A stretch of 64,000 bases of DNA from Patescibacteria group bacterium (GTDB taxonomy: Bacteria > Patescibacteriota > Patescibacteriia > Patescibacteriales > UBA12465): contig JBAZKQ010000001.1 in the NCBI GenBank assembly GCA_041650715.1, positions 723,913 to 787,912 of the forward strand. The letters run 5' to 3'. The notes under the pieces were generated by a model. The model was not told the DNA's origin. It searched no databases and worked only from the letters and a program-made list of their open reading frames with translations. This document shows, one piece after another, positions 13,406 through 62,092 of the stretch (its first letter is position 1; each line of letters opens with the position of its first letter). The position numbers were made by a program, and so were the translations under genes.

Positions 13406-14106
13406 GAAAATAAATATTTAAGTCCTTCCCATACCGTTCCAAAGCCATATTTTAAGCTCCGGGTAAAATTTATAGACGAGGCTTCTTTAAAATAGCGGAC
13501 CGGGACAGGGACTTCGCCAATTCGGTATTTCTCGCGCACAATCTGAAATAAGACTTGGCTATCAAACACAAAATCATCGGAATTTCCCTGCCACTTTATT
13601 TTTTCCAGCACCGACCGCTTATAAGCGCGCATGCCAGTGTGCCATTCCGAGAGATTATAGCCGGTCACTAAATTTTCAAAAATAGTCAGAGCGCGATTAG
13701 CCAAGTATTTATAACGGGGCATACCGCCGGCGAGAGTCTCGCGCCGGCTGCGGATACGCGTCCCCAGCATGACATCATAATAATCATCGACAATAAACTG
13801 AACAAAAAAATTAATTAATTTCGGATCATATTGATAATCCGGATGCACCATAACAACGATATCCGCGCCGTGTTCAAGCGCCAAGCGGTAACACGTTTTT
13901 TGGTTCGCTCCATAGCCGCCGTTTGTTTCGCGCCGAAAAACAAAAAGCCCTAAGCGTTCGGCTTCAGCCACTGTCGTATCGGCGCTGCGGTCGTCAACTA
14001 AAATAATTTCATCGACGAGCGCCGGTATATCGCGCACTGTGAGCGCTAAAGTCTCGGCCGCGTTATAGGCCGGAAGGACAACAATAATTTTCTGGCCTTT
14101 ATACAT
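13402..14106 (-). CDS. family 2 glycosyltransferase (polyprenol-phosphate sugar synthase-like)
   Basis: 234 aa. VVLPAYNAAETL...ILVDDRSADTT is the GT2 DxD region. Confidence 0.8.
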   Translation of the reverse strand: MYKGQKIIVVLPAYNAAETLALTVRDIPALVDEIILVDDRSADTTVAEAERLGLFVFRRETNGGYGANQKTCYRLALEHGADIVVMVHPDYQYDPKLINFFVQFIVDDYYDVMLGTRIRSRRETLAGGMPRYKYLANRALTIFENLVTGYNLSEWHTGMRAYKRSVLEKIKWQGNSDDFVFDSQVLFQIVREKYRIGEVPVPVRYFKEASSINFTRSLKYGFGTVWEGLKYLFS

Positions 14107-27132: not shown

Positions 27133-29682
27133 TTACTTGGCAAAAAACATTTCATCATCATCCTCGTAAGGCTTTGCCGCCGGCTTATCGCCCTCAACTT
27201 TCGGCAAGGGATGATCCTGATGAATCTCCTCTAATATTTCATCCTCATCGTCAATTGTAGCGTCTTCTTCTTCCGGCGTCAAACTTAATTCTTCTTTAAT
27301 TTCTTCTTCATTTTCTGGGGCTTCGTCCTCCGCTTCTTCTTCCTCATTTTCATCCGGAGCGGGCTTGTCATTCTTAAAAACCAAAACATCATCCGCCTCC
27401 TCTTCATCTTCATCCGCCTCATCTTCTTCGCCTAAATAACTGGCTGGCGCCACGGCTGTCGCCCGATCATGAACCGGAATTCCGCTAATAACTTCCGTAT
27501 TCGATGCTTCATATTGTTCCTGGCTAATCATCACTTCGCGCGGCTTCGCGCCATTTGAGGGTCCAATAATACCTGACTCTTCGAGCATATCTAATATCTT
27601 AGCCGCCCGGCCATAACCGATAGAAAGACGGCGCTGCAGCATTGAGGTTGAAGCCTTTCCGGCTTTAACAATTATTTCTTTAGCTGCTTCGAATAATTCA
27701 TCTTCATCACCGTGATTACCGTCTAACCCGACTCCGGCGTTTCCGCCCACTTTCTGACGGTCGGTTACCCCCTCTAAATATTCAGCTGGTCCGCACTTAT
27801 CTTTAATATAATTTACGACATCGTTTATTTCATTATCGCTTAAGTATGCCCCCTGGATTCTTTTTGGTTTGGAAAACTCAGCGGTCATAAATAACATATC
27901 GCCTTGGCCCAATAATTTTTCTGCGCCCGACGAATCAAGAATTGTTTTCGAGTCGACGAGCGAAGCCACGGAAAACGCGATACGCGTCGGTACGTTCGCT
28001 TTGATTAACCCGGTAATAACATCAACGCTCGGCCGCTGTGTCGCAAGTATCAAATGGATACCGATGGCGCGCGACATCTGGGCAAGACGGATAATAGCCG
28101 CTTCCATTTCCTTACCGCTCGTCATCATAAAATCGGCGAGCTCATCAATAATGAAAACGATATAGGGTAATTTTTCTTTAGCTGTTTGATTATATGATTG
28201 GATATTGCGCTTCCCCGCTTTATTTAAAACATCATAGCGGCGCTCCATTTCATTCAAGCACCACTTAAGCGCGTTGATCGTTTTATTAACATCGGTAATG
28301 ACCGGGGTTAGTAAATGAGGAATGCCGTTATAAGTCGGGAGTTCAACCCGCTTCGGATCAACCATGATAAAGCGTAGTTCATCCGGATTATTTTGGTAAA
28401 GCAAAGAAACAATAATTGAATTTAAACAGACTGATTTCCCGGAATTAGTCGCGCCCGCCACAAGGAGGTGCGGCATGCGCGTTAAATCATAAAGCCAGGC
28501 CGTACCGGCGACATCTTTACCAAGAGCAATAAATAAATTATTTTTTCGATCTTTAAAAGTTTGATCTTCTAAAATTTCTCTTAGACCAACGATTGCTTTC
28601 GCGCGGTTAGGCACCTCGACACCGACTAATGACTTACCCGGAATCGGTGCTTCAATTCTAATCGGATGCGCGGCGAGCGACAACGAGAGATCATTACTTA
28701 AAGTTGTAATCCGAGAAAGTTTAACGCCTTCCGCCGGACGAAAAGTATATTGAGTCACAGTCGGGCCAACCTTAGTATCTCCCATCTCGACATCAATGCC
28801 GAATTTATTTAAAGTTTTTTGAATCTTAAGTGCATTGGCGTCGGTATCGCCGCCGATTGCTTTGGTAAATTTATTATTTAAAAGTTCGAACGGCAAATCA
28901 ATTTTAATTAAGCGTTTCGGCCAAACAATTTTTTCCTGTACCTTCGGCTTATCTTTAAGTGCCTTAGCCGGTGAAACTATTTCATCTTCCTCTTCTTCAA
29001 TTTCTTCCGGTTTCACTTCTTTCTTCTGCCAGGCACTTAAAATTTCTTCTTTCGCTTCGGCCACAAATTTCTGACCCTGATTATCCTCCACTTCCGAACT
29101 GGAAAATAAATTCTTGAAGAAAAGAGCAAAGGGCCGGAAAATCTTAGCGAGCATACTTTCCTGACCGATAATGCGCGCGAGCGAAGTATTGAAGACGAGC
29201 ACGAGCGATATTAATAAGAGGGCAATTAAAACGAGCACACCGCCCCAGAAACCGAAGATATAATTAAATAACTCACTCAAATACAAGCCGATATAGCCAC
29301 CGCCAACCCCTGTTTCCACCGTCGTCTCCCAATTAATCTGGTCGATAAAAAAGTGAAATAGAGTTTGATAAGAAATAAAAAGCGTAGTCAATCCCAAATA
29401 GTCCGTAAATTTTAAAGGTTTCTTGGTCTTACGGATTAAAATAAGCGCCCAATAAAGAAAAATGAGCGGGACAAGCCATTTACCGAAGCCGAAAATAAGG
29501 GTCAACCACTTCGAAAGGAAAATGCCAAAATGGCCGGAAAGATTAAACAGGCCGAGCAGGCTAACAAGACCGAGCACAATGAGAAACACGATAATAATAC
29601 TGCGCTTAGCGCGATCATCAAGGTCGAACTCTGGCAAGGAGATGTAATCAAGGGGATTAGAATTTTTCTTTTTACGAGACAT
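27133..29682 (-). CDS. ftsK: DNA translocase FtsK/SpoIIIE with acidic C-terminal tail
   Basis: 849 aa. N-terminal TM segments, Walker A (VAGATNSGKSV), a gamma-like winged-helix region (LQRRLSIGYGRAAKILDMLEE), then a ~100-aa Glu/Asp-rich tail. Confidence 0.9.
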   Translation of the reverse strand: MSRKKKNSNPLDYISLPEFDLDDRAKRSIIIVFLIVLGLVSLLGLFNLSGHFGIFLSKWLTLIFGFGKWLVPLIFLYWALILIRKTKKPLKFTDYLGLTTLFISYQTLFHFFIDQINWETTVETGVGGGYIGLYLSELFNYIFGFWGGVLVLIALLLISLVLVFNTSLARIIGQESMLAKIFRPFALFFKNLFSSSEVEDNQGQKFVAEAKEEILSAWQKKEVKPEEIEEEEDEIVSPAKALKDKPKVQEKIVWPKRLIKIDLPFELLNNKFTKAIGGDTDANALKIQKTLNKFGIDVEMGDTKVGPTVTQYTFRPAEGVKLSRITTLSNDLSLSLAAHPIRIEAPIPGKSLVGVEVPNRAKAIVGLREILEDQTFKDRKNNLFIALGKDVAGTAWLYDLTRMPHLLVAGATNSGKSVCLNSIIVSLLYQNNPDELRFIMVDPKRVELPTYNGIPHLLTPVITDVNKTINALKWCLNEMERRYDVLNKAGKRNIQSYNQTAKEKLPYIVFIIDELADFMMTSGKEMEAAIIRLAQMSRAIGIHLILATQRPSVDVITGLIKANVPTRIAFSVASLVDSKTILDSSGAEKLLGQGDMLFMTAEFSKPKRIQGAYLSDNEINDVVNYIKDKCGPAEYLEGVTDRQKVGGNAGVGLDGNHGDEDELFEAAKEIIVKAGKASTSMLQRRLSIGYGRAAKILDMLEESGIIGPSNGAKPREVMISQEQYEASNTEVISGIPVHDRATAVAPASYLGEEDEADEDEEEADDVLVFKNDKPAPDENEEEEAEDEAPENEEEIKEELSLTPEEEDATIDDEDEILEEIHQDHPLPKVEGDKPAAKPYEDDDEMFFAK

Positions 29683-29754
29683 AGTTAAAAATTAAGAAAA
29701 TAAAGGATAAATACATTATATCATAAGCGGGGATAAATAAAATACGGAAAAATA

Positions 29755-29893
29755 AAAAACCGTCAATAATCTGTAGAGCGTTATTTACCGGCCCGAAGGC
29801 TAATAAACGACGAAAAGTAAAAACATATTTAAGGAGAGAGATTGATTAAATGCGTTTTAGACTTCTCCGCTCTACAAGTTATTGGCGGTTTTT
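29755..29893. repeat. 26-nt imperfect inverted repeat (23/26) enclosing ~87 nt; terminator-like or structured RNA at the distal end of the GC-rich block
   Basis: 29755-29780 (AAAAACCGTCAATAATCTGTAGAGCG) pairs with 29868-29893 (CGCTCTACAAGTTATTGGCGGTTTTT). The inside holds a GCC-UUCG-GGC hairpin (minus-strand reading). A/T runs on both outer sides give a U-tract on either strand. Confidence 0.6.
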
Positions 29894-29898
29894 AGCTT

Positions 29899-29985
29899 AT
29901 TCTCTTCTGAAGATACCATAATTATATGATATTTTCGGGAAAGAAGCGAACAGGTGAACTGCCTGTTCGCGCTTTTTTTGAACTT
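29899..29985 (-). ncRNA. conserved intergenic element, copy A (hairpin plus second hairpin; no hammerhead core)
   Basis: Shares GUUCAA, a GCGAACAG(G)/(C)CUGUUCGC stem, CUUCUUUCCCGAAA, a covarying second hairpin and UUCAGAAGAGAA with 33568-33658. Starts 8 nt after the helicase stop. Confidence 0.55.
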
Positions 29986-29992
29986 AAAAGAA

Positions 29993-32900
29993 CTATTTGA
30001 TTAACCCAGCGCGACGCAAGGCTTCAGCCATAGCGTCATTCGAAGTTCCGACTTTATCTTGCCAATTTTCTTGGCGCAACTGTTTCGGTTCTTCGTACGA
30101 AGTGTCATTTCCGAAATGATATTCCGATACATAGTATTTGACATCATTCGGATCGGCGCCACAAAAAAAATCTGAAGTTTCGCCAATAGACGACCAAACG
30201 TCGCTTAAATTGCGGCTAACTCGGGCGCGCCCGCAGGAAATTTCATGAGCATCAATTTTACGGGTCGGCAATTTAGACACATTATCCATAAATTGAAGCG
30301 CACGGTCAACGTCGTTTGCGAAAGCATTAAGCAAGTAAGCCGGAATATTATTGGCCCTTACTAAAGCGTCACGGTCGGCTTGGCGTGTTTTTAGAAGATC
30401 AACGAGTCCGGCGATAAAATTATTGGCCTCGTTAATCTTTACTTTAGCTTCCAAAAAATTAGCTTCATTACTCAGGCTACGTGCTTCGGAAACTAAATAA
30501 CGGAAACGGCTCGATTCTTCAGAAATTAATTCTAAGGATTGATTAGAAAAATGATTGCTAAAGTTATTTTCTGCTTCTTCAATCAATTCTCCCACTTCGC
30601 TGTTTTCCGAAAGCAAATTTGCCTTCAGCGTACGTAAGCCCTGTCTGCTTTCGCTTAGGAGCTCAGAAAAATTTTCCGCGTTTGCCCGTTCGACAACCTG
30701 AGAAATAATTCTTGTACTTTCAGTTTGGAATCTTTCAGTCATGGCAGTCCAGCCCCAGCTATACCAGGGTCTATCGGATTCCAAGAAAAATTCACCGCTC
30801 AGTAGCGCCCGCATCATACTTATTATCGCGGAGCGATTAGCAAGCTTTGCATCTTTAGAATCCTTATGAATGGCGAGGCGGAAACTATTACCACTCAGTG
30901 AGATATACGGAAAAGCATAAACTTTTTCTCCGTTATCTTTCTGGGCATATTCTAACGGCTGAAGCTCTTTCAGCAAAGCAACAAAACTTTCTCCGCTCTC
31001 TAACCAAGGAGCATTCCTCAGCTCGCTTTCCTTAATCCGCCACGCTTCTTCGAGGCGTCTATTTTCAAAATAAACGTTTACCTCGTCAAAGCTATCAAAA
31101 CTTGTATAAGAATCGACATACAGTCTCAGCTGACGACCACCGGCAAGACTTAAGGTGCCAATTTGGTTCTTAGCCTGCTCGGCATTGATACGAATTGCAG
31201 CCTGATTATTGTTATAGTTAACAGAAATTTCTTCACCATTAACTAAAATAGAGTCAGGATTATCAGCCAGCACTTTTGCTTCGAGCTCGGCGTCGATATT
31301 AGTAAGAAGAAAATCTTCTACCTTTATCTCAGCCAAACACTTTGCCGAAACAAGTTTCAATGAAACAAACTCTTGCCACTCCGATCGTTCGAACGGATAA
31401 ACAAAAATTTTCTCACCGGCACGACGATTTAATTCTTTGGCCCGCTTTATTATTTCGTTATCAGCGGCGGCGAATTCATAATTGTCTATGCTGTAACCAT
31501 AAGACAATTTATTCACCAGCCAATTACCAAAAATTTTAGCGGCCTCAGGATGATCCGGCGTTTCCAGAACTTCTTCTTTAACAAGCATGTCATTAAAGAA
31601 TGTCTGACGCGTCGAAACACAAACGTCTTTTTCCGAGTCAAATTTAGGACTTACTCCTTCTTCGACTTTAGCCAGTTGCGGAGCAACCTCGACTAACCAT
31701 GAAGTGTCCACGTTTGTGGCCATTGTGACAAGACGAAATATTCCGCGTCGGGTCGCGAGATCGAAGGGTTGTCCGACAATCCAATTTTTTCCGTTAACAA
31801 TGGATTCATTGGAAAGCCGACGAGAATAACCGTCGCCGTTTCTGTAATCCGACCATGAGCCCTGATATAAGTGCTCAACCATGCCGGCACAAAGTGCTTT
31901 TAGGATATCCTCCCTCTTTCCAGAACTCTGAAAAGAAGAAATTTTTCCTTTGAGCGCATTTGCCAGAAGCTGACGGCGATCACGTGCCTGATGATAGGCT
32001 TTCACGAAGACACCTTTTAAACGGCGTTCTTCGTTAGACATATTCCTGGCACCGCGGAAAACCGCGAGTTGCGCCATCGGGTCCGAATCTTCTTCCTTCG
32101 GACAGAAAGCCGGACGCCAAAGATCGACTGCATCCATTACATCGTCGCCGATTGTAACTTTACGAGCAGTTACTCCACCTTGTTCAAGAATAGCGGCGAT
32201 ATCAATAATATCGTCGACTACCCCGTACTTTTCCGCAGCGATAACCATGCGGCCATACTGAACAGAAATAGGCAGGCGAGAAACCTGACGCCCGATTGCA
32301 GTTACCAAACCGCTTTCGTCCATGCAACCAAGAGCTCTGAGAGCTTGCTTAGCCTCATGAATTTGATCTTGAGGCGGCTGATGGAAAAAATTTAATTCTT
32401 CGGCATCAATCTTAGCTTCGGCCAAACGTAAGACGGTTTGGTCGAGACGAACGCGTAGAATTTCGGCTTCCGGGAAGGCTAAACGATTTTCGTCGTCCGT
32501 TGGACAACAATCGATATAGACTCCCTCGCGGCAACGACCGGCCCGGCCTTTGCGTTGGGCGCGATCAGCTAGTGAAATCGCTTTCAGGAATAATCCTTCG
32601 ACGCCTTCATTAAGCTCGATACGACGCTCAGTCCCACCATCAACAACGGCATCAATATCCTCAATCGTAATCGAGGTCTGAGCGACGTTAGTGGCAATGA
32701 CACACTTGGGGCGACTATAGGAACGGAATACCCGATCCTGTTCGTCAGCTTCAAGTTCACCGTGCAGCGGCAGGATTTCGGCGTTGAGGCCATAGCTTTC
32801 CAGCTGGCTCCATAATTCACCGATTTCTTTTTTTCCCGGCTGAAAGGCTAAAACATTGCGACCCTCTTTAAGAAGACTGCTAATGTCCTGGCCCATGTTT

Positions 32901-33457
32901 CCGGAACTAACTTGCTCCTCAACCGGGTAACAACGACCGGGAATACTAATCACCGGTGCGTTGTTGAAATAAAGCGATAATTTTTCCGCTTCAAGTGTAG
33001 CGGACATAATTACCAATTTAAATTCGACGCCGCTTTCGATTTGGCGTTTCGACCAAGCAACGAGAACCTCCATATTGAGATTCCATTCGTGGACTTCGTC
33101 GAGCACCAGAATCTGGTGACGATGAGTGCCCATTAACTCTCTCACGAGAGCGAGGCCGTCCGTTACGAATAAGCAGCGCGTATTCGGTCCGTCCTGTTTT
33201 TCATAAGCAGTCCGGAATCCGATTTCGCTACCAAGTTCGCAATTACGTTCTTGGGCAACACGTTTCGCTACCGAGCGAGCGGCGAGACGACGCGGTTGAG
33301 TTACAACGAGAGAATATCCCTCGTCGAGCAAAAATTGCGGCACGCGGGTTGATTTCCCGGCGCCAGTTTCAGCGGTGATGATAACAACTGAATTGTTAAT
33401 CACTGAATTAATAATCTGGGCCCGGTAAGAATCCACGGGCAATTTCTGGTTTTTCAT
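29993..33457 (-). CDS. DEAH-box (HrpA/HrpB-like) ATP-dependent helicase with ~500-aa extra C-terminal region
   Basis: 1154 aa. TGAGKST Walker A, DEVHE motif II, SAT, QRKGRAGR motif VI, then an HA2/OB-like region to about aa 600. I could not assign the rest. Confidence 0.8.
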   Translation of the reverse strand: MKNQKLPVDSYRAQIINSVINNSVVIITAETGAGKSTRVPQFLLDEGYSLVVTQPRRLAARSVAKRVAQERNCELGSEIGFRTAYEKQDGPNTRCLFVTDGLALVRELMGTHRHQILVLDEVHEWNLNMEVLVAWSKRQIESGVEFKLVIMSATLEAEKLSLYFNNAPVISIPGRCYPVEEQVSSGNMGQDISSLLKEGRNVLAFQPGKKEIGELWSQLESYGLNAEILPLHGELEADEQDRVFRSYSRPKCVIATNVAQTSITIEDIDAVVDGGTERRIELNEGVEGLFLKAISLADRAQRKGRAGRCREGVYIDCCPTDDENRLAFPEAEILRVRLDQTVLRLAEAKIDAEELNFFHQPPQDQIHEAKQALRALGCMDESGLVTAIGRQVSRLPISVQYGRMVIAAEKYGVVDDIIDIAAILEQGGVTARKVTIGDDVMDAVDLWRPAFCPKEEDSDPMAQLAVFRGARNMSNEERRLKGVFVKAYHQARDRRQLLANALKGKISSFQSSGKREDILKALCAGMVEHLYQGSWSDYRNGDGYSRRLSNESIVNGKNWIVGQPFDLATRRGIFRLVTMATNVDTSWLVEVAPQLAKVEEGVSPKFDSEKDVCVSTRQTFFNDMLVKEEVLETPDHPEAAKIFGNWLVNKLSYGYSIDNYEFAAADNEIIKRAKELNRRAGEKIFVYPFERSEWQEFVSLKLVSAKCLAEIKVEDFLLTNIDAELEAKVLADNPDSILVNGEEISVNYNNNQAAIRINAEQAKNQIGTLSLAGGRQLRLYVDSYTSFDSFDEVNVYFENRRLEEAWRIKESELRNAPWLESGESFVALLKELQPLEYAQKDNGEKVYAFPYISLSGNSFRLAIHKDSKDAKLANRSAIISMMRALLSGEFFLESDRPWYSWGWTAMTERFQTESTRIISQVVERANAENFSELLSESRQGLRTLKANLLSENSEVGELIEEAENNFSNHFSNQSLELISEESSRFRYLVSEARSLSNEANFLEAKVKINEANNFIAGLVDLLKTRQADRDALVRANNIPAYLLNAFANDVDRALQFMDNVSKLPTRKIDAHEISCGRARVSRNLSDVWSSIGETSDFFCGADPNDVKYYVSEYHFGNDTSYEEPKQLRQENWQDKVGTSNDAMAEALRRAGLIK

Positions 33458-33567
33458 TTTTATAAGTTTTGGTTTTGAGGATGGTCAAACAAATTTAGCC
33501 AGCCTAAAAACCAAAACTAAAGGATAAATAATAACCTTATTACTATTAAGTTTTAAACGTACACTTT

Positions 33568-33658
33568 TTTCTCTTCTGAAAGCACCATTGGTAAATTTCA
33601 CTAATGATGATTTCGGGAAAGAAGCGAACAGTTTGAAAGTCTGTTCGCTCTTGAACTT
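33568..33658 (-). ncRNA. conserved intergenic element, copy B
   Basis: Paralog of 29899-29985. Lies between the DHH-motif gene stop (33727) and the helicase leader. Confidence 0.55.
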
Positions 33659-33726
33659 TTTTCTCATCCGATTTCGCTCTTAGAGATTAAAGCGCTCAAT
33701 TTAATGTCGAGAGATGACGAAAGGAT

Positions 33727-34575
33727 TTATGCCTGGGGTTTGTCGTAAGCCCCGGCAAAACCACGGCCAGCATCACCATAGGCCTGATAAAGACCGTTAG
33801 CAGCTGCCCAGCCGTTGGGATAAGTTGGCCGGCCTTCGGCCATTACGGCCTCACCGAGAAATTCGGCGACAACCGGTTTGGTACCGGACAGGTTCACCTT
33901 GTCCGGGAAACGTTTGTCTCCCTTTGCGAGATAAGGTGTGGCTGTCATGACTCCGGCCTCTACCAAAAATGGTATCGGACCCGAGTCGCGAACATCTGCT
34001 ACCTGGACACCGCCGAGCGTGACAGTTTTGGTCGGATTTTTCAGCTGCTGAACAGCGGCTTCGATTCCGGCCATAGCTTCGGCCTCCGAAGAAACGTTTT
34101 CACGTTTCATAATTTCGGGAAGACGCATGGCGAGAACTTCTTCAGCCGTAACACCAGGACACTGTCCCTGGTAGGCGGCGCCAAGACAGTGGTCTGCGGC
34201 AGCTATCACCCGGTCCTCCTGAGTTGGCTCAACTTCGAGATATTTCAGGAGTTGCCCCAATGAGGAAGCCTCGAGATACTGGCTTGGCGGTAAGCCGAAG
34301 CCAAAATTTCCTGGGTTATGATGGTCGCATTGCCCAACCATGACCAGCGAGCCGGCGGCTTTCGGAGAGCATTCAAAAATAATGCATTCCAAAGCCTCGG
34401 CGGCAGATTCGGTTGAATCCAGAACGAAGCCGTCGGCACGGTAGGCTGTCATTGGGTTGCACTTTTCGCCTGCAATTGTTGCCGTGGCTAAAAGTAAACC
34501 GTGCTGAGCGGCAATTTTGCGTGCTCTCTGCTCCTCGATGTCGGGAGCGCCGAAAATAATCACAATTTTATTCAT
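33727..34575 (-). CDS. DHH-motif protein (putative phosphoesterase), paralog 1
   Basis: 282 aa from MNKIVIIFGAPD. Contains QCDHHNPGN and AAADHC. It aligns by eye with ORF 34862..35632 (KIVIIFGAPD/KIFFIVPAND; CDHH/IDHH; SSLGQLLKYLEVE/SSIEQVAALLGVE; IAAADH/IAANDK). The track's upstream 17 codons fall inside the conserved leader hairpin, so I trimmed them. Confidence 0.6.
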   Translation of the reverse strand: MNKIVIIFGAPDIEEQRARKIAAQHGLLLATATIAGEKCNPMTAYRADGFVLDSTESAAEALECIIFECSPKAAGSLVMVGQCDHHNPGNFGFGLPPSQYLEASSLGQLLKYLEVEPTQEDRVIAAADHCLGAAYQGQCPGVTAEEVLAMRLPEIMKRENVSSEAEAMAGIEAAVQQLKNPTKTVTLGGVQVADVRDSGPIPFLVEAGVMTATPYLAKGDKRFPDKVNLSGTKPVVAEFLGEAVMAEGRPTYPNGWAAANGLYQAYGDAGRGFAGAYDKPQA

Positions 34576-34601
34576 TTTTTTCTTTTTTTCTCCGCGCACC
34601 A

Positions 34602-34656
34602 TTGCTCGGATTATTCTGTAACTCATAAATTATGAAATCCAAAATAATCCGGACAA
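34602..34656 (-). promoter_or_regulatory. conserved 5'-leader long hairpin, copy 1
   Basis: Arms 34602-34615 and 34643-34656 (minus strand UUGUCCGGAUUAUU / AAUAAUCCGAGCAA) enclose a 27-nt loop containing CAUAAUUUAUG. About 100 nt of leader is near-identical to 36580-36690. Confidence 0.6.
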
Positions 34657-34723
34657 TATGCTCCTTAAAAATGAAACAAATTTTTAGGTCTTTCTATTTC
34701 TATATTTTTCTATCAAAGAACAT

Positions 34724-34776
34724 TTCCATTTCGTCGTTTCCGACTCATCAGCACTGATACACATCAGTGGATGGAA
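34724..34776 (-). ncRNA. type III hammerhead ribozyme (HHR-1)
   Basis: Minus strand: UUCCAUC|CACUGAU-GUGU-AUCAGUG-CUGAUGA-GUCG-GAAA-CGAC-GAAA-UGGAA. All core invariants are present (C3-A9, G12-A14, A15.1:U16.1, C17, G10.1:C11.1). Stems I, II and III are 7, 4 and 6 bp. Confidence 0.9.
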
Positions 34777-34861
34777 GAGCAAGTTTAAACGGCTTGCTCT
34801 TTTGAACTTTTTTTTGCTGGCCAACGCCAATTACTCCGCAAAAGAGAGTATGATTTTGAAA

Positions 34862-35632
34862 TTATTTTTGCCAGAAAAATTCCAAAATCTTGACCTGGGT
34901 TTCTGGAGTGGGTTTTTCCACTCCCGAGAATCCATTCTTCGGATCACCACCGGCCCAGCGAGCGAATGTCGTTCCATCCTCAGTGAGAGCATAAAACTGC
35001 ATGTGCCGTGGACCGAAATAAATCCATTTTCCATTGAGGCCGTCAACGGTCAGAAGTTCAGCGTACTGACCAAAAATGCGGTCGGTAATTGCCGAAGTGG
35101 AGCCCTTTGGGCAACGGACAAACCATTTTTCGCCCCGGATTTCAGCCGACCGGATATCAGCTACTGCTTGGGCCTCTTGATCAGGAGTGACGCCCTGCGA
35201 CAAGCGGTCTTGGGCACGAACAATTTTAATTTCGTTTTCAGTTGCGCCCATCGCCCTTAATGCCGGAATGTATCCTTTATCATTGGCGGCGATAAGGAGT
35301 TGATGGTGAGTAAGTTCTACTCCCAAAAGAGCGGCCACCTGCTCGATTGAGGATTTTTCGTTGAAACGATTTTCATCACGGTAAATGTGATGATCAATAT
35401 TAATTGCGTTCCAACGAGCGAGCCCGCCCAGTTCAACCCCGTAAATCACGGCCGAAGGATTAGCGGATAAAACTCCCTCAACTTTTTCAACCACGGTTTG
35501 TTCTAACCTGGCCCAGGTTGCTCCCCAGGCTTGACGGGTAACTACGTGACTGATTTTAGCGGCCTGAAGAATTTTACGGATTTCTACCGCTTCGCCATCA
35601 TTAGCTGGCACTATGAAAAAAATTTTTTCCAT
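34862..35632 (-). CDS. DHH-motif protein (putative phosphoesterase), paralog 2
   Basis: 256 aa. Contains NIDHH and AANDKGY. Start is coupled to the upstream stop (UAAUG). Confidence 0.6.
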   Translation of the reverse strand: MEKIFFIVPANDGEAVEIRKILQAAKISHVVTRQAWGATWARLEQTVVEKVEGVLSANPSAVIYGVELGGLARWNAINIDHHIYRDENRFNEKSSIEQVAALLGVELTHHQLLIAANDKGYIPALRAMGATENEIKIVRAQDRLSQGVTPDQEAQAVADIRSAEIRGEKWFVRCPKGSTSAITDRIFGQYAELLTVDGLNGKWIYFGPRHMQFYALTEDGTTFARWAGGDPKNGFSGVEKPTPETQVKILEFFWQK

Positions 35633-36063
35633 TACACAAAGTTTAATTGGCCACCAAGCTCATAAGCAACGGCGTCCTGGTTGGTTAAAACTTTTATCTC
35701 TTCGGCGAGCGAAGCTAAGTTCTTCCGAACTTTACTGGCTATGCCTATACCCCAGAGAATCCAAATATATTCAATTTGAACCACTCCGTTTTCGGATAGT
35801 ACCCACATACCGCTAGCCGGGGTTTCATTGCTGAACCCCAAACTCTTAGCATGTTCACGTAGCTTCTGGACGTGCTCGGTTGCCACCGGCTCACCAGTTT
35901 TTTGTAGAGTTGGGATATATAGGGCATCCCGTCCCCCTTTAAATTCTTCTCCGAGTTCCGAAAGTTCTTCAGTGGAATATGTCCACCAACCGATTTCCGG
36001 TTCAAGAGTACACCCACCAGCTCTAAGAGCCGCCTCAAGAGGCGACTTTGCTAAATATTTCAT
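35632..36063 (-). CDS. hypothetical protein (143 aa)
   Basis: The ORF starts 24 nt after HHR-2 and its stop overlaps the next start. No motif recognised. Confidence 0.55.
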   Translation of the reverse strand: MKYLAKSPLEAALRAGGCTLEPEIGWWTYSTEELSELGEEFKGGRDALYIPTLQKTGEPVATEHVQKLREHAKSLGFSNETPASGMWVLSENGVVQIEYIWILWGIGIASKVRKNLASLAEEIKVLTNQDAVAYELGGQLNFV

Positions 36064-36087
36064 CTACCGCGTTGTTTTAATGAACAT

Positions 36088-36140
36088 TTCCGTTTCGTCG
36101 TTTCCGACTCATCAGCACCGACATACATCGGTTGACGGAA
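36088..36140 (-). ncRNA. type III hammerhead ribozyme (HHR-2)
   Basis: Minus strand: UUCCGUC|AACCGAU-GUAU-GUCGGUG-CUGAUGA-GUCG-GAAA-CGAC-GAAA-CGGAA. Core and stem II are identical to HHR-1. Stems I and III carry compensatory changes. Confidence 0.9.
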
Positions 36141-36180
36141 GAGCAAGTTTGAACGACTTGCTCTTTTTTGAACGCCCTTG

Positions 36181-36579
36181 CTATTTAGCCTTGGGCCGAA
36201 AATCCAAGTACTCGAACTCCACTTCCAAAAAAGTGAGTTGAGTTGTTGACTGGCCCAATTTTTTCGCGGTCCTTTTCAGAACCTTGAGAGTCGCGGCTTT
36301 GTAGGCCGCTAATTCGGTGTATTCCGGATTACATTCGCCAGTGATGGCGACTGTAATTTCACCTCCGACAGGGCAGCCCCAGTCTTTGTGATAAACCGTG
36401 CGCGCCGACGTAATCACGGCTCCAACATAGGTGCCGTATTTTTTCATAACTGCGGCCGCTGATTGCTGCCATGCTTTTGCAGCGATTTCCACTGCATTGT
36501 CGGCAGTAATCACTGCATTGTCGTGGCCATAGCCTGCAACAACTCCCAGGCTGGCAAAAAATTTACTGGTTTTTTTCAT
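36181..36579 (-). CDS. hypothetical protein (132 aa)
   Basis: ORF preceded by the conserved leader hairpin and an A-rich tract. No motif recognised. Confidence 0.55.
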   Translation of the reverse strand: MKKTSKFFASLGVVAGYGHDNAVITADNAVEIAAKAWQQSAAAVMKKYGTYVGAVITSARTVYHKDWGCPVGGEITVAITGECNPEYTELAAYKAATLKVLKRTAKKLGQSTTQLTFLEVEFEYLDFRPKAK

Positions 36580-36606
36580 TTTTTTCTTTTTTCGTCCGCG
36601 ACACCA

Positions 36607-36661
36607 TTGTCCGGATTATTCTGTAGTCCATAAATTATGAAATTCAAAATAATCCGGACAA
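36607..36661 (-). promoter_or_regulatory. conserved 5'-leader long hairpin, copy 2
   Basis: Perfect 14-bp arms at 36607-36620 and 36648-36661 (UUGUCCGGAUUAUU / AAUAAUCCGGACAA). Confidence 0.6.
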
Positions 36662-36719
36662 TATGATCCACAAAAAATGAAAAATCTTTTTCGACTATTC
36701 AATTTCAAAGAACTTTTTT

Positions 36720-37668
36720 TCCTCTACCTAATCTAATTAATCTATTCTGAGGAAGTTCCCGAGTCCCAAGCTTGTTCAAGGCTTAATGGCTCGGCCGATC
36801 TCCTCATAAGAGACGGTCACGATTGTCGCTTTTCTCCGAGCCTTTTCTCCTTTCGGAAATACGGCCACAAGATACTTGGATCGCCTGCGCCCTTGATTAT
36901 AGTTTGCGACATAATCTCGGGATCAGCTCGACTAACCGTTTATTCTTTCCGGTCCGTAGGCCACGAAAGAAGCAAACGAATGAGCGCTTGCTGGTCTTAG
37001 GAAATGAACTCTCTCCCTGACTCGCAATTTTTGCGAGCAGATGTTAATTCATCTTAATCTCCTAAAATCGACACTAATCGCTCGATAATTTTTTTATTAT
37101 TTATGTACGATAGATTATTCCTTAATCTAATTAGGAGAACGGTTTAACCGCCGTTCTTTCGGCTCTCCGCTAAGCGGATAGTGATGAAGGGGAGAAACGA
37201 ATACATTATTTTGTGGCGCGCATGGGGCTGCACCGCTCTCTCTCCTCTCCATTACTATTCACTCAACAAAAAACTCTCTATTATGGAGAGAGCAAAGTTC
37301 CTATATATGCGGGCGCGCCTTAGCTTAATCAAGCCTCTGCGCTCACGTATATATCTTGGTTTTAAATAATGGCTCTCTCCTTCCATTACTTTTCTATTTG
37401 TAAATGTTCGTCTCGACTTCTCGCCCGGCTCTTGGCCTGGGCATTAGCGGAGACTGGGTCTCTCTTATCTTATTGATAAGGGATGGCCACTCGCCGTTAA
37501 GGCTTTCCCTGTTCTTACCCTTCGGATTGGACTACCACCATGCTCTCTCCTTCATAATGGTCGTCACTCTAACCCAGCTAAGTATAGAATCGGGGAGTGA
37601 TATCTCTTTATTAATGAATGTACTGGGATGTGTCCGAATGTCTCTTTGCCTTTTCTCACTTTCGATAC
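36720..37668 (-). ncRNA. candidate large structured non-coding RNA or long leader (no ORF of 60 aa or more on this strand)
   Basis: Lies downstream of the minus-strand promoter at 37701-37673. Dense local hairpins. Three GGAGAGAG-containing repeats (plus coordinates 37538-37560, 37367-37390, 37233-37256) and a complementary GCUCUCUCC (37285-37293). Class unknown. Confidence 0.45.
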
Positions 37669-37672
37669 TAAC

Positions 37673-37701
37673 AGTTTAGCATAGATATTTAATCTTGTCA
37701 A
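37673..37701 (-). promoter_or_regulatory. sigma70-like promoter facing the GC-rich block
   Basis: Minus strand TTGACA (37701-37696), 17-nt spacer, TAAACT (37678-37673). Confidence 0.55.
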
Positions 37702-37797
37702 TACTAAATCTTACATTTTATTGCTATTGTTAGCAAAACAGCGGACAGTATTGAGTAAAATAGGCATATTTATTTACTAAAAGTGTCATTATTTGAG

Positions 37798-37826
37798 TTG
37801 ACACCTATATTTAAATTTGCTATAAT
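37798..37826 (+). promoter_or_regulatory. consensus sigma70 promoter of the TrmB-like gene
   Basis: TTGACA (37798-37803), 17 nt, TATAAT (37821-37826). The -10 is embedded in palindromes GCTATAATATAGC and TATAGCTATA. Confidence 0.7.
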
Positions 37827-37911
37827 ATAGCTATAAACTACTATTTCGCTTGACGCCTAATAAGCGCAAACGAAATAAAAATCATTATTTGTAAAGTTAT
37901 CCCCAACCCAT

Positions 37912-38700
37912 ATGAACGAAAAAATCTTAATTAGTCTCGGTTTAAGCGGTGTACAAGCAGAGGTTTTTAGTTGCCTGCTCCAAAACGGACCGCAAAAAGC
38001 CAGTGATATCGCCAAATTAACCAAGCGCCCCCGCGGTGTCGCCTACAAAGGCTTAGAGGAATTGATTAGCTTGGGTCTGGCCAATAAAAAAGAAGCAAAG
38101 GCCGGTATAGCTGTCTTCGCGGCTGAGCACCCCTCGAATCTCGAGAAGGTCATAGAACAAAAAGAAAAAGACCTGGCTAAAACCAAGTCTGCTTTTGCGA
38201 GCTCCCTGCCCGATCTGATATCGACTTTCAATCTTGTCAGCAATAAGCCAGGAGTTAGATTTTATGAGGGGGAGGAAGGAATTAAAAAATCCCTGGAAGA
38301 TACCTTAAATTGCCAAGACATAATTTATACTTTTGCTGACATCGAGGCCGTTGAAAAAAACGTCAAAGAAATTAATGACGCTTACGCTAAAAAGAGGGAG
38401 AAGGCACAAATTAAAAAAAGAGTTATCGTCGCCGATACTCCTTTTAATCGCTCTTATTTAAAAAATTATAATGGCACTATTACCGAGTTTCGTTTTCTCC
38501 CCAAAGATTTTTACAGTTTTAACAGCGGCGTGCAAATTTATGAAAATAAAGTTTCTTATCAAGTAATTTCGGCGGAGAATAAGATGGCTATTATTATTGA
38601 AGACAAAAATATATACCAAATGAATAAGCTTTTATTTGAGTTTATCTGGGAAAAATTGGCAACTAAAATTAATGATTCTTCTCAAACGCCAAATACCTAA
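37912..38700 (+). CDS. TrmB-family HTH transcriptional regulator (paralog 1)
   Basis: 262 aa. N-terminal wHTH (LGLSGVQAEVFSCLLQNGPQKASDIAKLTKRPRGVAYKGLEELISLGL). The shared block PGVRFYEGEEGIKKSLEDTL matches ORF 52657..53430. Confidence 0.75.
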   Translation: MNEKILISLGLSGVQAEVFSCLLQNGPQKASDIAKLTKRPRGVAYKGLEELISLGLANKKEAKAGIAVFAAEHPSNLEKVIEQKEKDLAKTKSAFASSLPDLISTFNLVSNKPGVRFYEGEEGIKKSLEDTLNCQDIIYTFADIEAVEKNVKEINDAYAKKREKAQIKKRVIVADTPFNRSYLKNYNGTITEFRFLPKDFYSFNSGVQIYENKVSYQVISAENKMAIIIEDKNIYQMNKLLFEFIWEKLATKINDSSQTPNT

Positions 38701-61582: not shown

Positions 61583-61656
61583 GGGCAATTAGCTCAGTTG
61601 GTTAGAGCGCAACACTGATAATGTTGAGGTCGGAGGTTCGAATCCTCCATTGCCCA
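61583..61656 (+). tRNA. tRNA-Ile(GAU)
   Basis: GGGCAAT/ATTGCCC acceptor stem, anticodon loop CTGATAA, T-loop GGTTCGAATCC. Confidence 0.9.
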
Positions 61657-61680
61657 CTCTAAAGTATAGTTGATAATTAT

Positions 61681-61753
61681 AGCGGGATAGAGCAGTTGGC
61701 AGCTCGCTAGGCCCATAACCTAGAGGTCGTCGGTTCGAGTCCGACTCCCGCAA
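61681..61753 (+). tRNA. tRNA-Met(CAU), initiator-type
   Basis: Anticodon loop CCCATAA. An A1/A72 mismatch at the top of the acceptor stem and A73. The body is close to what I recall of E. coli tRNA-fMet (GAGCAG..GCTCG...AGGTCGTCGGTTCGA.TCCG.C.CCCGCAAC). Confidence 0.8.
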
Positions 61754-61777
61754 CAAGTTTAACAATAGTATTTTCAT

Positions 61778-62092
61778 GCCTCGGTAGCTCAGTGGTAGAG
61801 CAAAGGACTGGTTTTCGGTCCGCTCAATGGAAACATTGAGATGAAAATCGGGTGAATTCGGGGAAGCCTTAATTTAGAAATAAAAAAGGTAATCCCGAGC
61901 CAAGCTTTAATTGGGTAAATAATTAAAGAAGGTGTAGAGACTAGCGGGTGAGCCCAACAATAACCCCGCCGCGAGCGCCCGACTCCGTCCTTAAAAATTA
62001 AGCGGAGATGATATAGTCCGATCCTTAAGGAAACTTAAGTTGTAGCAAGGAAAATCCTTGTGTCGTCAGTTCGATTCTGACCCGGGGCACCA
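61778..62092 (+). tRNA. tRNA-Phe(GAA) interrupted by a group I intron; CCA encoded
   Basis: Exons 61778-61809 and 62050-62092 join to GCCUCGGUAGCUCAGUGGUAGAGCAAAGGACU|GAAAAUCCUUGUGUCGUCAGUUCGAUUCUGACCCGGGGCACCA. This makes a normal cloverleaf with anticodon GAA. Confidence 0.85.
61810..62049 (+). ncRNA. group I intron (IC3-like) in the tRNA-Phe anticodon loop
   Basis: P1 pairs exon GGACU with the intron guide GGUCC (61817-61821), with a U.G wobble at the 5' splice site. The intron ends in G. Core strings AAUUCGGGGAAGCCUUAA, AAUCCCGAGCCAAGCU and GAAGGUGUAGAGACUAG match tRNA-borne IC3 introns (Azoarcus tRNA-Ile, cyanobacterial tRNA-Leu) as I recall them. Confidence 0.85.

Follow-up and report, generated by a model that had tools for sequence, protein, structure and literature searches.

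Clusters of hammerhead ribozymes that flank genes or short gene blocks in prophage-like regions of bacteria were described in 2011 (Perreault et al., PMC3088659), and such clustered hammerheads process polycistronic RNAs in vitro (PMC3088659), yet what hammerheads do in bacteria has still to be settled (PMC6765202). NrN and the S-adenosylmethionine-AMP (SAM-AMP) lyase, for their part, are alternative enzymes of CRISPR (clusters of regularly interspaced short palindromic repeats) loci (Chi et al. 2023, PMC10600005; PMC12255297). Here we describe a locus in which hammerheads and homologues of both enzymes occur together. It is a block of five minus-strand open reading frames (ORFs) at positions 29745-37701 of a 64,000-nucleotide stretch of DNA (hereafter the window) from a Patescibacteria group bacterium (GCA_041650715.1, contig JBAZKQ010000001.1, positions 723,913 to 787,912). 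With a probability of about 0.6, we read the block as a lineage-specific chromosomal operon with a structured leader, in which hammerheads and double hairpins cut a transcript that encodes homologues of SAM-AMP-degrading enzymes.

Like the 2011 clusters (PMC3088659), the block carries same-strand hammerheads between cistrons and a variable gene content, and processing into gene-length mRNAs is proposed. Unlike them, it is a core-chromosome operon without phage genes. Its hammerheads are of type III with very short stems, score below the Rfam threshold and each carry a fused hairpin upstream; orthologous slots hold either such a hammerhead or a double hairpin that is no ribozyme, and a leader RNA of ~1 kb is present. 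A first-pass annotation of the window had asked whether the block is an undescribed ribozyme-punctuated gene system; that wording goes too far, since gene-flanking hammerhead clusters have been known since 2011 (PMC3088659). What is new here is the gene context, the natural interchange of hammerheads and hairpins and, probably, an undescribed large leader RNA. In the literature, we found no paper that joins hammerheads with SAM-AMP lyase or NrN enzymes.

The encoded proteins resemble the turnover enzymes of type III-B CRISPR-CorA: they show full-length homology to both and retain the catalytic Glu and the DHH motif. Unlike in CRISPR loci, lyase and NrN homologues are encoded together, with a third protein of the SAM-lyase fold and an NrN paralogue; unlike in CRISPR-CorA, neither cas10 nor corA lies within the 64 kb, and enzyme activity is predicted from homology. 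AcrIIIB4, a phage SAM-AMP lyase and candidate anti-CRISPR (PMC12255297), is likewise a lyase homologue away from a CRISPR module. Unlike AcrIIIB4, the lyase homologue described here (p132) is not on a recognisable phage or plasmid, has no extra N-terminal domain and lies within a conserved chromosomal operon.

Results

Two type III hammerhead ribozymes separate genes of a co-oriented block

The five ORFs are flanked by ftsK (27133-29682) and by a divergent TrmB-like gene. All 14 items that the first-pass annotation had listed were found at or near where it had placed them (Table 1), and its picture of a co-oriented unit with a conserved RNA structure in each intergenic gap held up. A direct-repeat scan of the window recovered three paralogous pairs of RNA elements: the hairpin-plus-hammerhead units (34708-34803 and 36072-36167; 86% identical), the leader hairpins (34597-34685 and 36602-36690; 83%), and the elements that we call A and B (29926-29974 and 33604-33652; 82%). 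All of them fold much better than shuffled sequences (Table 1).

The two hammerheads, HHR-1 and HHR-2, read UC/N (the slash marking the cleavage site), stem I, CUGAUGA, stem II with a GAAA loop, GAAA and stem III. Both contain the full core (C3-U4-G5-A6-N7-G8-A9, G12-A13-A14, the A15.1-U16.1 pair and H17), and between the two copies, stems I and III show compensatory changes. Cleavage is predicted after C34770 in HHR-1 (AUC/C) and after C36134 in HHR-2 (GUC/A). A covariance model built from six hammerhead units (R1) was run on the window and related loci (labelled L001, L002 and so on), and it found 20 hammerheads across 13 loci, namely the window and 12 relatives. In this family of 20 copies, pairing is seen in 98.2% of the cells and compensatory changes in 12 of 17 pairs; sliding the register by 1-3 columns reduced pairing to 31-49%. 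A filter-free hammerhead search of the block gave no third copy, and R1 found none elsewhere in the window. HHR-1 and HHR-2, which had been called from the letters, are thus genuine type III hammerheads with stem III open, as borne out by full cores and family covariation, and they are predicted to self-cleave.

At its gathering score, Rfam reported no hammerhead in the window, whereas a permissive search with Hammerhead_3 (RF00008) matched 34723-34777 and 36087-36127 (scores in Table 1). We attribute the low scores to the short stems and to loops unlike those of the seed; a gathering score is an annotation threshold and not a biochemical criterion. Directly before each hammerhead lies an 8-bp hairpin, H1, which would become the 3'-terminal hairpin of the upstream mRNA (the p132 mRNA in the case of HHR-2) once the hammerhead cleaves.

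Hammerheads and double hairpins alternate in orthologous slots

The other two of the four junctions at which the first-pass annotation saw a hairpin plus an element are not ribozymes, so that 'ribozyme-punctuated' describes only half of them. Elements A and B consist of H1 (8 bp) and, immediately 3' of it, a long hairpin (8 + 10 bp); in an eight-copy alignment, this double hairpin is 95% paired with four compensated pairs. Its model found further copies in L004, L006, L007, L010, L013 and L015. The divergent copies retain the two helices only, and the long hairpin of L015 is almost perfectly paired, with no conserved internal loop left to hold a catalytic core. In element A, H1 with its UUCUUU tract scores as terminator-like. 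Rfam holds no family matching elements A and B or the leader hairpins. Elements A and B were also considered as degenerate hammerheads, and this was rejected at 7-8 bits with the filter-free hammerhead model (8.3 for B).

Both kinds of element occupy the same positions. The slot after p132 holds a hammerhead in nine loci, a double hairpin in two and nothing in one; the slot after the NrN-like gene is split evenly, with five loci each; and at the end of the block, L007 has a hammerhead and six loci have a double hairpin. The number of hammerheads per locus ranges from 0 to 3. This alternation in orthologous slots suggests that the two devices are functionally interchangeable: both would define mRNA ends, the hammerhead by self-cleavage and the double hairpin by termination and/or a double-strand-specific RNase.

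The early genes of phage T7 offer a parallel, in that long intercistronic hairpins cut by RNase III separate the messages and leave a protective 3' hairpin. By analogy, the double and leader hairpins would separate messages and protect 3' ends here. Unlike the T7 sites, they come with a separate hairpin upstream and alternate with ribozymes, and for them cutting by an RNase is hypothetical.

A GUUCAA(A) motif recurs 5' of every H1 and inside H1 loops (34801-34812, 36165-36176, 33661-33672 and 29976-29987, all on the minus strand), with GGGUUAA in its place in the divergent loci L003 and L009. It may be a protein-binding site.

The genes themselves are preceded by hairpins of another kind. Leader hairpin 1 is followed by an A-rich tract and then the p132 AUG. 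Its paralogue, leader hairpin 2, stands before p282, and this position supports the ATG at 34575 as the true p282 start. A different long hairpin precedes the helicase gene. The Y-shaped structure that closes the block is conserved in L001, L002, L005, L006, L007 and L010 and is likely the operon terminator.

A conserved structured RNA leads the probable operon

The first-pass annotation had also taken an ORF-free kilobase at the start of the transcript for a non-coding RNA, and conservation and compensatory pairs bear this out. On the operon strand, positions 36580-37911 contain 24-34 stops per frame under genetic code 11, and the frames are closed under codes 11, 4 and 25 alike, leaving no hidden coding. 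The leader is conserved at the DNA level in L001, L002, L005, L006, L007 and L012. RNAalifold gave 142 pairs in 18 helices, 96.3% paired, with compensatory changes in 24 of the 142 pairs as against 3-6 in slid registers. Many pairs are invariant G-U, which identifies the operon strand as the transcribed one.

The best-conserved part is a multi-branched 3' domain, whose 90% column identity exceeds the ~73-79% DNA identity of neighbouring genes in the same loci. A model of this domain (R3) scored 200-237 bits in seven loci and gave no match in L003, L004, L009 or L013. It also gave a weak 27-bit match in the divergent L024, 5' of a p143-NrN gene pair whose NrN-like protein is 43% identical. L024 is a low-G+C relative, and the match lies in a region of 3.3 kb (L024 4205-7530) with short ORFs only; the leader of L024 may be much longer or built otherwise.

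The 5' part of the leader contains GGAGAGAG boxes and is ~280 nt longer than in L001 and L002. It also contains a conserved terminator-like hairpin (37293-37273, followed by a U run), whose 5' arm CUCUCUCC can pair alternatively with an upstream GGAGAGAG box. The GGAGAGAG:CUCUCUCC helix would be antiterminator-like and the arrangement attenuator-like, which suggests a regulatory role. In L006 and L007, an extra hammerhead lies between the leader RNA and p132, so there the leader would come off as a separate molecule. Two small ORFs (124 and 108 aa) stand between the leader RNA and this extra hammerhead in L007 (1209-2010).

Rfam 15 gave nothing at gathering score for the leader and nothing relevant at E<=10 in 36.7-37.7 kb, and a literature search found no description of this RNA. 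The leader is therefore probably an undescribed large structured RNA. It resembles GOLLD, ROOL, HEARO, OLE and raiA in its length of several hundred nucleotides, its many helices and its strong conservation. Unlike these, it has no Rfam match, lies 5' of an operon and has a narrow spread (seven close loci and one weak distant match).

The conserved proteins resemble SAM-AMP-degrading enzymes

In the first-pass annotation, the block carried no recognisable defence-system signature. This view has to be revised: p132 resembles SAM-AMP lyase, p256 resembles NrN, and PADLOC matches both. Residues 1-125 of p132, its full length, aligned with the structures 9gad, 9gab and 9lqd (phmmer, E 1.4e-19), and the GE of its WGCPvgGEiTV motif aligns with that of WGCPENGEETV, which holds the catalytic E71 of the Clostridium botulinum enzyme (PMC12255297). 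PADLOC assigned p132 to Mvol_0529-fam (2.5e-25), and it is 40-42% identical to plasmid proteins of C. botulinum and C. sporogenes. We conclude that p132 is a SAM-AMP lyase homologue with predicted lyase activity, which would split SAM-AMP into MTA-AMP and homoserine lactone.

The family profile of p256 matched the NrN structures 9lq9, 9lqa and 9lqc over its full length (positions 2-247; E 4e-41). An IDHH motif is invariant in the family, corresponding to the D85/H86/H87 described for NrN (PMC10600005), and PADLOC matched p256 to C3a116 (1e-35) and DHH_CorA (1e-32). The PADLOC families matched by p132 and p256 were defined as CorA-associated type III accessory genes (PMC6546367). p256 is thus an NrN homologue, for which phosphodiesterase activity is predicted.

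The gene for p143 overlaps that for p256 at base 35632 (TAATG). Sequence searches with p143 (Pfam, PHROGs, NCBIfam, PADLOC, PDB by phmmer and by profile, and hhalign against p132) gave nothing significant. Structure prediction with Foldseek, which the first-pass annotation had suggested, was more informative: the AlphaFold2 (AF2) model is confident (predicted local distance difference test score, pLDDT, 92.6), and its best matches were phage SAM lyase (6zm9 and 6znb; E 1.3e-3, TM ~0.5), followed by CutA, PotN and SbtB. We tentatively assign p143 to the SAM-lyase/PII-like fold, at the level of the modelled fold. It has 49 homologues only. Its gene always adjoins the NrN-like gene.

The two remaining proteins are variable cargo. 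p282 matched no PDB sequence. A distant kinship with the NrN-like family emerged from hhalign (86% probability, E 5e-6), in which the DHH, SSL and AxxD motifs line up. It is missing from the relatives and is encoded by the most G+C-rich gene in the window (0.542). A kinship of p282 with a 284-aa cargo protein of relatives was considered and rejected, the two being unrelated. The 1154-aa helicase matched the NCBIfam models HrpB (5.5e-89; 299.5 bits against a cut-off of 546) and HrpA (1.2e-87; 294.8 against 723) over its first ~750 aa only, leaving the C-terminal ~400 aa outside the alignment; Pfam found DEAD, Helicase_C and a weak HA2. A helicase homologue, 31% identical, adjoins the NrN-like gene in L013. 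With an 879-aa cargo protein of L001 (L001 11030-13669), the helicase shares only the C-terminal ~195 aa, at 39% identity, which suggests a mobile C-terminal domain. The L001 protein has a weak cold-shock-domain match near its N-terminus.

The block lies in core chromosome and varies in cargo between relatives

The order RNA, p132, p143 and NrN-like gene is kept in the relatives, and the genes 3' of the second junction vary. The window has p282 and the helicase there; commoner cargo is a 284-aa protein, a GT8 glycosyltransferase, a PIG-L deacetylase and a 171-aa protein. L007, the closest relative in which ftsK is also the neighbour (78-79% identity), has other cargo. Helicase and p282 are therefore not fixed parts of the system, as they had at first appeared to be. 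Upstream neighbours in the relatives are a large GNAT-domain protein and the TrmB-like gene. The latter is adjacent to the operon and divergent in L001-L005, L009, L012 and L013, and its perfect-consensus promoter (37798-37826, plus strand) faces the operon promoter. The TrmB-like protein is a probable regulator of the operon.

Outside the block, the window is made up of ordinary core-chromosome genes, among them those for RNA polymerase subunits, PolA, Mur ligases, MurJ, RuvC and LepA. PADLOC on the 35 other window proteins found no Cas10 or CorA within the 64 kb, and the hallmarks of type III-B CRISPR-CorA (cas10/cmr genes, a CRISPR array and a CorA effector) are absent from the window. L001-L013 likewise contain neither Cas10 nor CorA. 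CRISPR linkage occurs only in the distant L087, where an NrN-like gene (44% identical) adjoins cas10, RAMP and RT-cas1 genes; in Arcobacter, the gene is fused to corA. Other NrN-like genes lie in a Mob_Pre element (40% identical) and in oral-TM7 chromosomes (42% identical), the latter with their own promoters and without hammerheads. No hammerheads were found near the NrN-like genes of ~40% identity, including the CRISPR-linked and Mob_Pre loci.

In an oral-type TM7 contig (L088 7440-9860), nearly the same promoter module (ATTGACA...TATCAT/TATTAT) serves both the NrN-like gene and the gene after it, and each of the two also has a CCUGUGUACACAGGG hairpin, an A+T-rich leader of 400-900 nt and a conserved motif near the ribosome-binding site. 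The second gene, which begins MEKYFIVAVDSFESKII, may be a paralogue. Here the same gene family has another regulatory layout. On the C. botulinum plasmid pRSJ10_1 (L090 8716-9369), the p132 homologue is the C-terminal domain of a 217-aa protein, which sits among methylase, primase-like and TnpB genes with no adjoining cas genes within 9 kb. This fusion resembles the N-terminally extended phage lyase proposed as AcrIIIB4.

The block had been described as visibly G+C-rich. The genes do show a modest rise (0.458-0.542, against 0.421 +/- 0.028 for the other 37 genes in the window), but the compositional signal is weak: G+C at third codon positions (GC3) is mostly ordinary (0.417-0.519, against 0.433 +/- 0.039 elsewhere in the window), being ~2 standard deviations high in p282 and p132 only. 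The rise therefore falls mostly on codon positions 1-2.

A tRNA lies downstream of the block in L001 and L002, and none does so in the window. Farther away, the window contains a group I intron (61801-62040, plus strand; Rfam 93.3 bits) just 3' of tRNA-Ile (61583-61657) and tRNA-Met (61681-61754); ARAGORN found no intron-containing tRNA around it.

Table 1. Features of the block and of the adjoining divergent gene, in window coordinates
Feature	Position	Strand	Evidence
HHR-1, type III hammerhead	34720-34779	-	R1 model 87.5 bits; Rfam 41.4 bits, E 1.9e-6
HHR-2, type III hammerhead	36084-36143	-	R1 model 84.8 bits; Rfam 24.5 bits; complete CUGAUGA...GAAA core
H1 hairpin 5' of HHR-1	34776-34800	-	fold compared with shuffles
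H1 hairpin 5' of HHR-2	36140-36164	-	fold compared with shuffles
Element A, double hairpin	29885-29987	-	model 96 bits; z = -6.8 against shuffles
Element B, double hairpin	33554-33660	-	model 81 bits; z = -4.6 against shuffles
Structured non-coding leader RNA, ~1 kb	36690-37668	-	no ORF, no Rfam match; conserved in relatives
3' domain of leader, 194 nt, multi-branched, best conserved	36748-36941	-	90% mean column identity, 7 loci
Terminator-like hairpin in leader (CUCUCUCC-loop-GAGAG and U run)	37265-37293	-	conserved columns
p132, SAM-AMP lyase homologue, PII-like fold family	36181-36579	-	phmmer against PDB
p143, SAM-lyase/PII-like fold (tentative)	35632-36063	-	AF2 and Foldseek
p256, NrN-family DHH phosphodiesterase homologue	34862-35632	-	family profile against PDB
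p282, distant NrN-family paralogue, variable cargo	33727-34575	-	hhalign
1154-aa HrpA/HrpB-like DEAH helicase, variable cargo	29993-33457	-	NCBIfam, Pfam
Leader hairpin 1, 19-bp perfect stem	36596-36670	-	z = -6.3; in L001, L002, L005, L007, L012
Leader hairpin 2, paralogue of leader hairpin 1, before p282	34591-34665	-	z = -5.8
Long leader hairpin before helicase gene	33465-33518	-	z = -2.9; partial match in L006
Terminal Y-shaped structure, closing stem >20 bp, then U run	29745-29890	-	z = -6.7
Sigma-70-type operon promoter TTGACA-17-TAAACT, TG-extended	37673-37701	-	10/12 consensus match; kept in L001 and L002
TrmB-like regulator gene, divergent	37912-38700	+	Pfam TrmB 1.1e-10; synteny in relatives

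Discussion

We propose that a single promoter, divergent from the TrmB-like gene, drives a transcript that would start at ~37665 and run through the leader, whose attenuator-like 5' part and conserved 3' domain may regulate read-through. Three conserved proteins and then variable cargo would be encoded after the leader, and two hammerheads and two double hairpins would split the transcript into p132, p143-p256, p282 and helicase messages. Hammerhead cleavage would leave the upstream message with a stable hairpin and a 2',3'-cyclic phosphate, and the downstream message with a 5'-OH. The double hairpin would do an equivalent job, most likely as a terminator and/or as the target of a double-strand-specific RNase. 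Each message would thus carry H1 at its 3' end and a long hairpin with an A-rich start region at its front. Since p132, p256 and p143 resemble the SAM-AMP-degrading enzymes of type III-B CRISPR-CorA, the predicted task of the operon is most likely the removal of SAM-AMP or a close SAM-nucleotide conjugate, without a linked CRISPR module. Its purpose could be counter-defence, service to an unlinked CRISPR-CorA module or another SAM-nucleotide pathway, and the evidence cannot decide between these.

Several observations weigh against this proposal. Neither hammerhead reaches the Rfam gathering score of 48.5, and the minimum free energy fold of each hammerhead unit lacks stem III. One copy in L002 (L002b, 13642-13701) has CCGAUGA for CUGAUGA (U4 to C) with all three stems kept, a core change expected to lower activity, and for the hammerheads in general, cleavage in vivo is predicted from sequence. 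The 5' part of the leader in L002 folds like shuffled sequences (z = -0.37). With 64 kb in view, Cas10 and CorA could lie elsewhere in the genome. The GT8 and PIG-L cargo of relatives hints at a metabolic rather than a signalling role, which therefore stays open.

The most serious competing explanation, unlikely in our view, is an integrated anti-defence island of mobile or phage origin, whose lyase and NrN would be anti-CRISPRs directed at CorA-type type III systems and whose hammerheads would be phage-type processing sites. Clusters of hammerheads in bacteria are as a rule associated with prophages, and anti-restriction genes such as ardA can be flanked by them (PMC3088659), and a phage SAM-AMP lyase is a candidate anti-CRISPR (PMC12255297). 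The Mob_Pre-borne NrN-like gene, the C. botulinum plasmid lyase-domain fusion away from cas genes, the cargo that differs by locus and the somewhat G+C-rich p282 and p132 point the same way. However, Pfam, PHROG and PADLOC scans of the block and its surroundings gave no integrase, transposase, relaxase or structural gene, in keeping with the first-pass annotation, which had noted the absence of integrase, transposase and capsid/terminase genes. Core genes flank both sides, and the upstream synteny is kept in relatives at 53-90% protein identity. Neither IMG/VR nor the GenBank phage collection holds a relative of p256, p132 or the RNA core, the GC3 of most genes is ordinary, and the direct-repeat scan found no repeats bounding the block.

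The RNA elements also admit other interpretations. It is improbable that elements A and B represent a new self-cleaving ribozyme class that substitutes for hammerheads. They share the hammerhead slots, the upstream GUUCAA motif and H1, their junction sequence (UUCUUUCCCGA ... UCAGAAGAGAA) is strongly conserved among close loci, and past ribozyme classes were discovered near hammerhead-associated genes (PMC4604425). However, the helices-only divergent copies and the absence of a conserved internal loop in L015 do not fit a catalytic core, none of the Rfam ribozyme families matched at E<=10, and H1 with its U-rich tract scores as a terminator. A 20-bp duplex such as theirs is moreover a standard substrate of double-strand-specific RNases. 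Still less probable is a retrozyme-like cycle in which two same-direction hammerheads would free the 1.36-kb p143-NrN segment for ligation into a circular RNA. The ribozymes are direct repeats 1364 nt apart, the two copies of L001 are almost identical, and hammerhead cleavage leaves 5'-OH and cyclic-phosphate ends, which suit RtcB-type ligation. Against this, the window copies differ in stem III (A-U against G-C), so that the hybrid hammerhead formed on circularisation would carry a mismatch; their number varies by locus with hairpins in their stead; the segment is an ordinary pair of coupled protein genes and not non-coding cargo; and a search of bacterial clusters for circles found none (PMC3088659). 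Finally, the conserved leader could be a decayed gene, or a small protein could be encoded on the other strand, where the window, L001, L002 and L012 all have an open frame of 60-99 codons. This antisense ORF over the 3' domain was rejected: variable columns (24/16/15 on codon positions 1/2/3) show no excess at the third position, a stop interrupts the frame in L005, the frame shifts in L006 and L007 while nucleotide conservation continues, and start codons are not conserved. Compensatory and invariant G-U pairs fit an operon-strand RNA instead, and we give a protein gene here next to no credence.

If the block is a processed chromosomal operon, as we favour, its hammerhead-or-double-hairpin slots are a natural swap experiment, which predicts that the same mRNA ends are made by two mechanisms. 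At its default threshold, Rfam misses these hammerheads. The leader, whose front end is attenuator-like, is a candidate for a new large structured RNA. To our knowledge, SAM-AMP has so far been known only from type III CRISPR signalling. In a small-genome bacterium without linked Cas10 or CorA, an operon that combines a lyase, an NrN, an NrN paralogue and a third protein of the lyase fold would therefore indicate either a use beyond CRISPR or an unlinked immune module; use beyond CRISPR loci would mean counter-defence or another SAM-nucleotide pathway.

A bolder reading, which we hold to be doubtful, is a stand-alone signal-quenching module, in which a new large RNA (~0.6-1 kb) would sense or scaffold SAM-AMP-type nucleotides and control the operon, three or four enzymes would destroy the signal with neither Cas10 nor CorA linked to them, and hammerheads and double hairpins would be devices for processing between cistrons that evolution can interchange. 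If true, it would amount to counter-defence for an epibiotic bacterium or to an unrecognised SAM-nucleotide signalling pathway, and comparative evidence on the function of chromosomal hammerheads in bacteria would be available for the first time.

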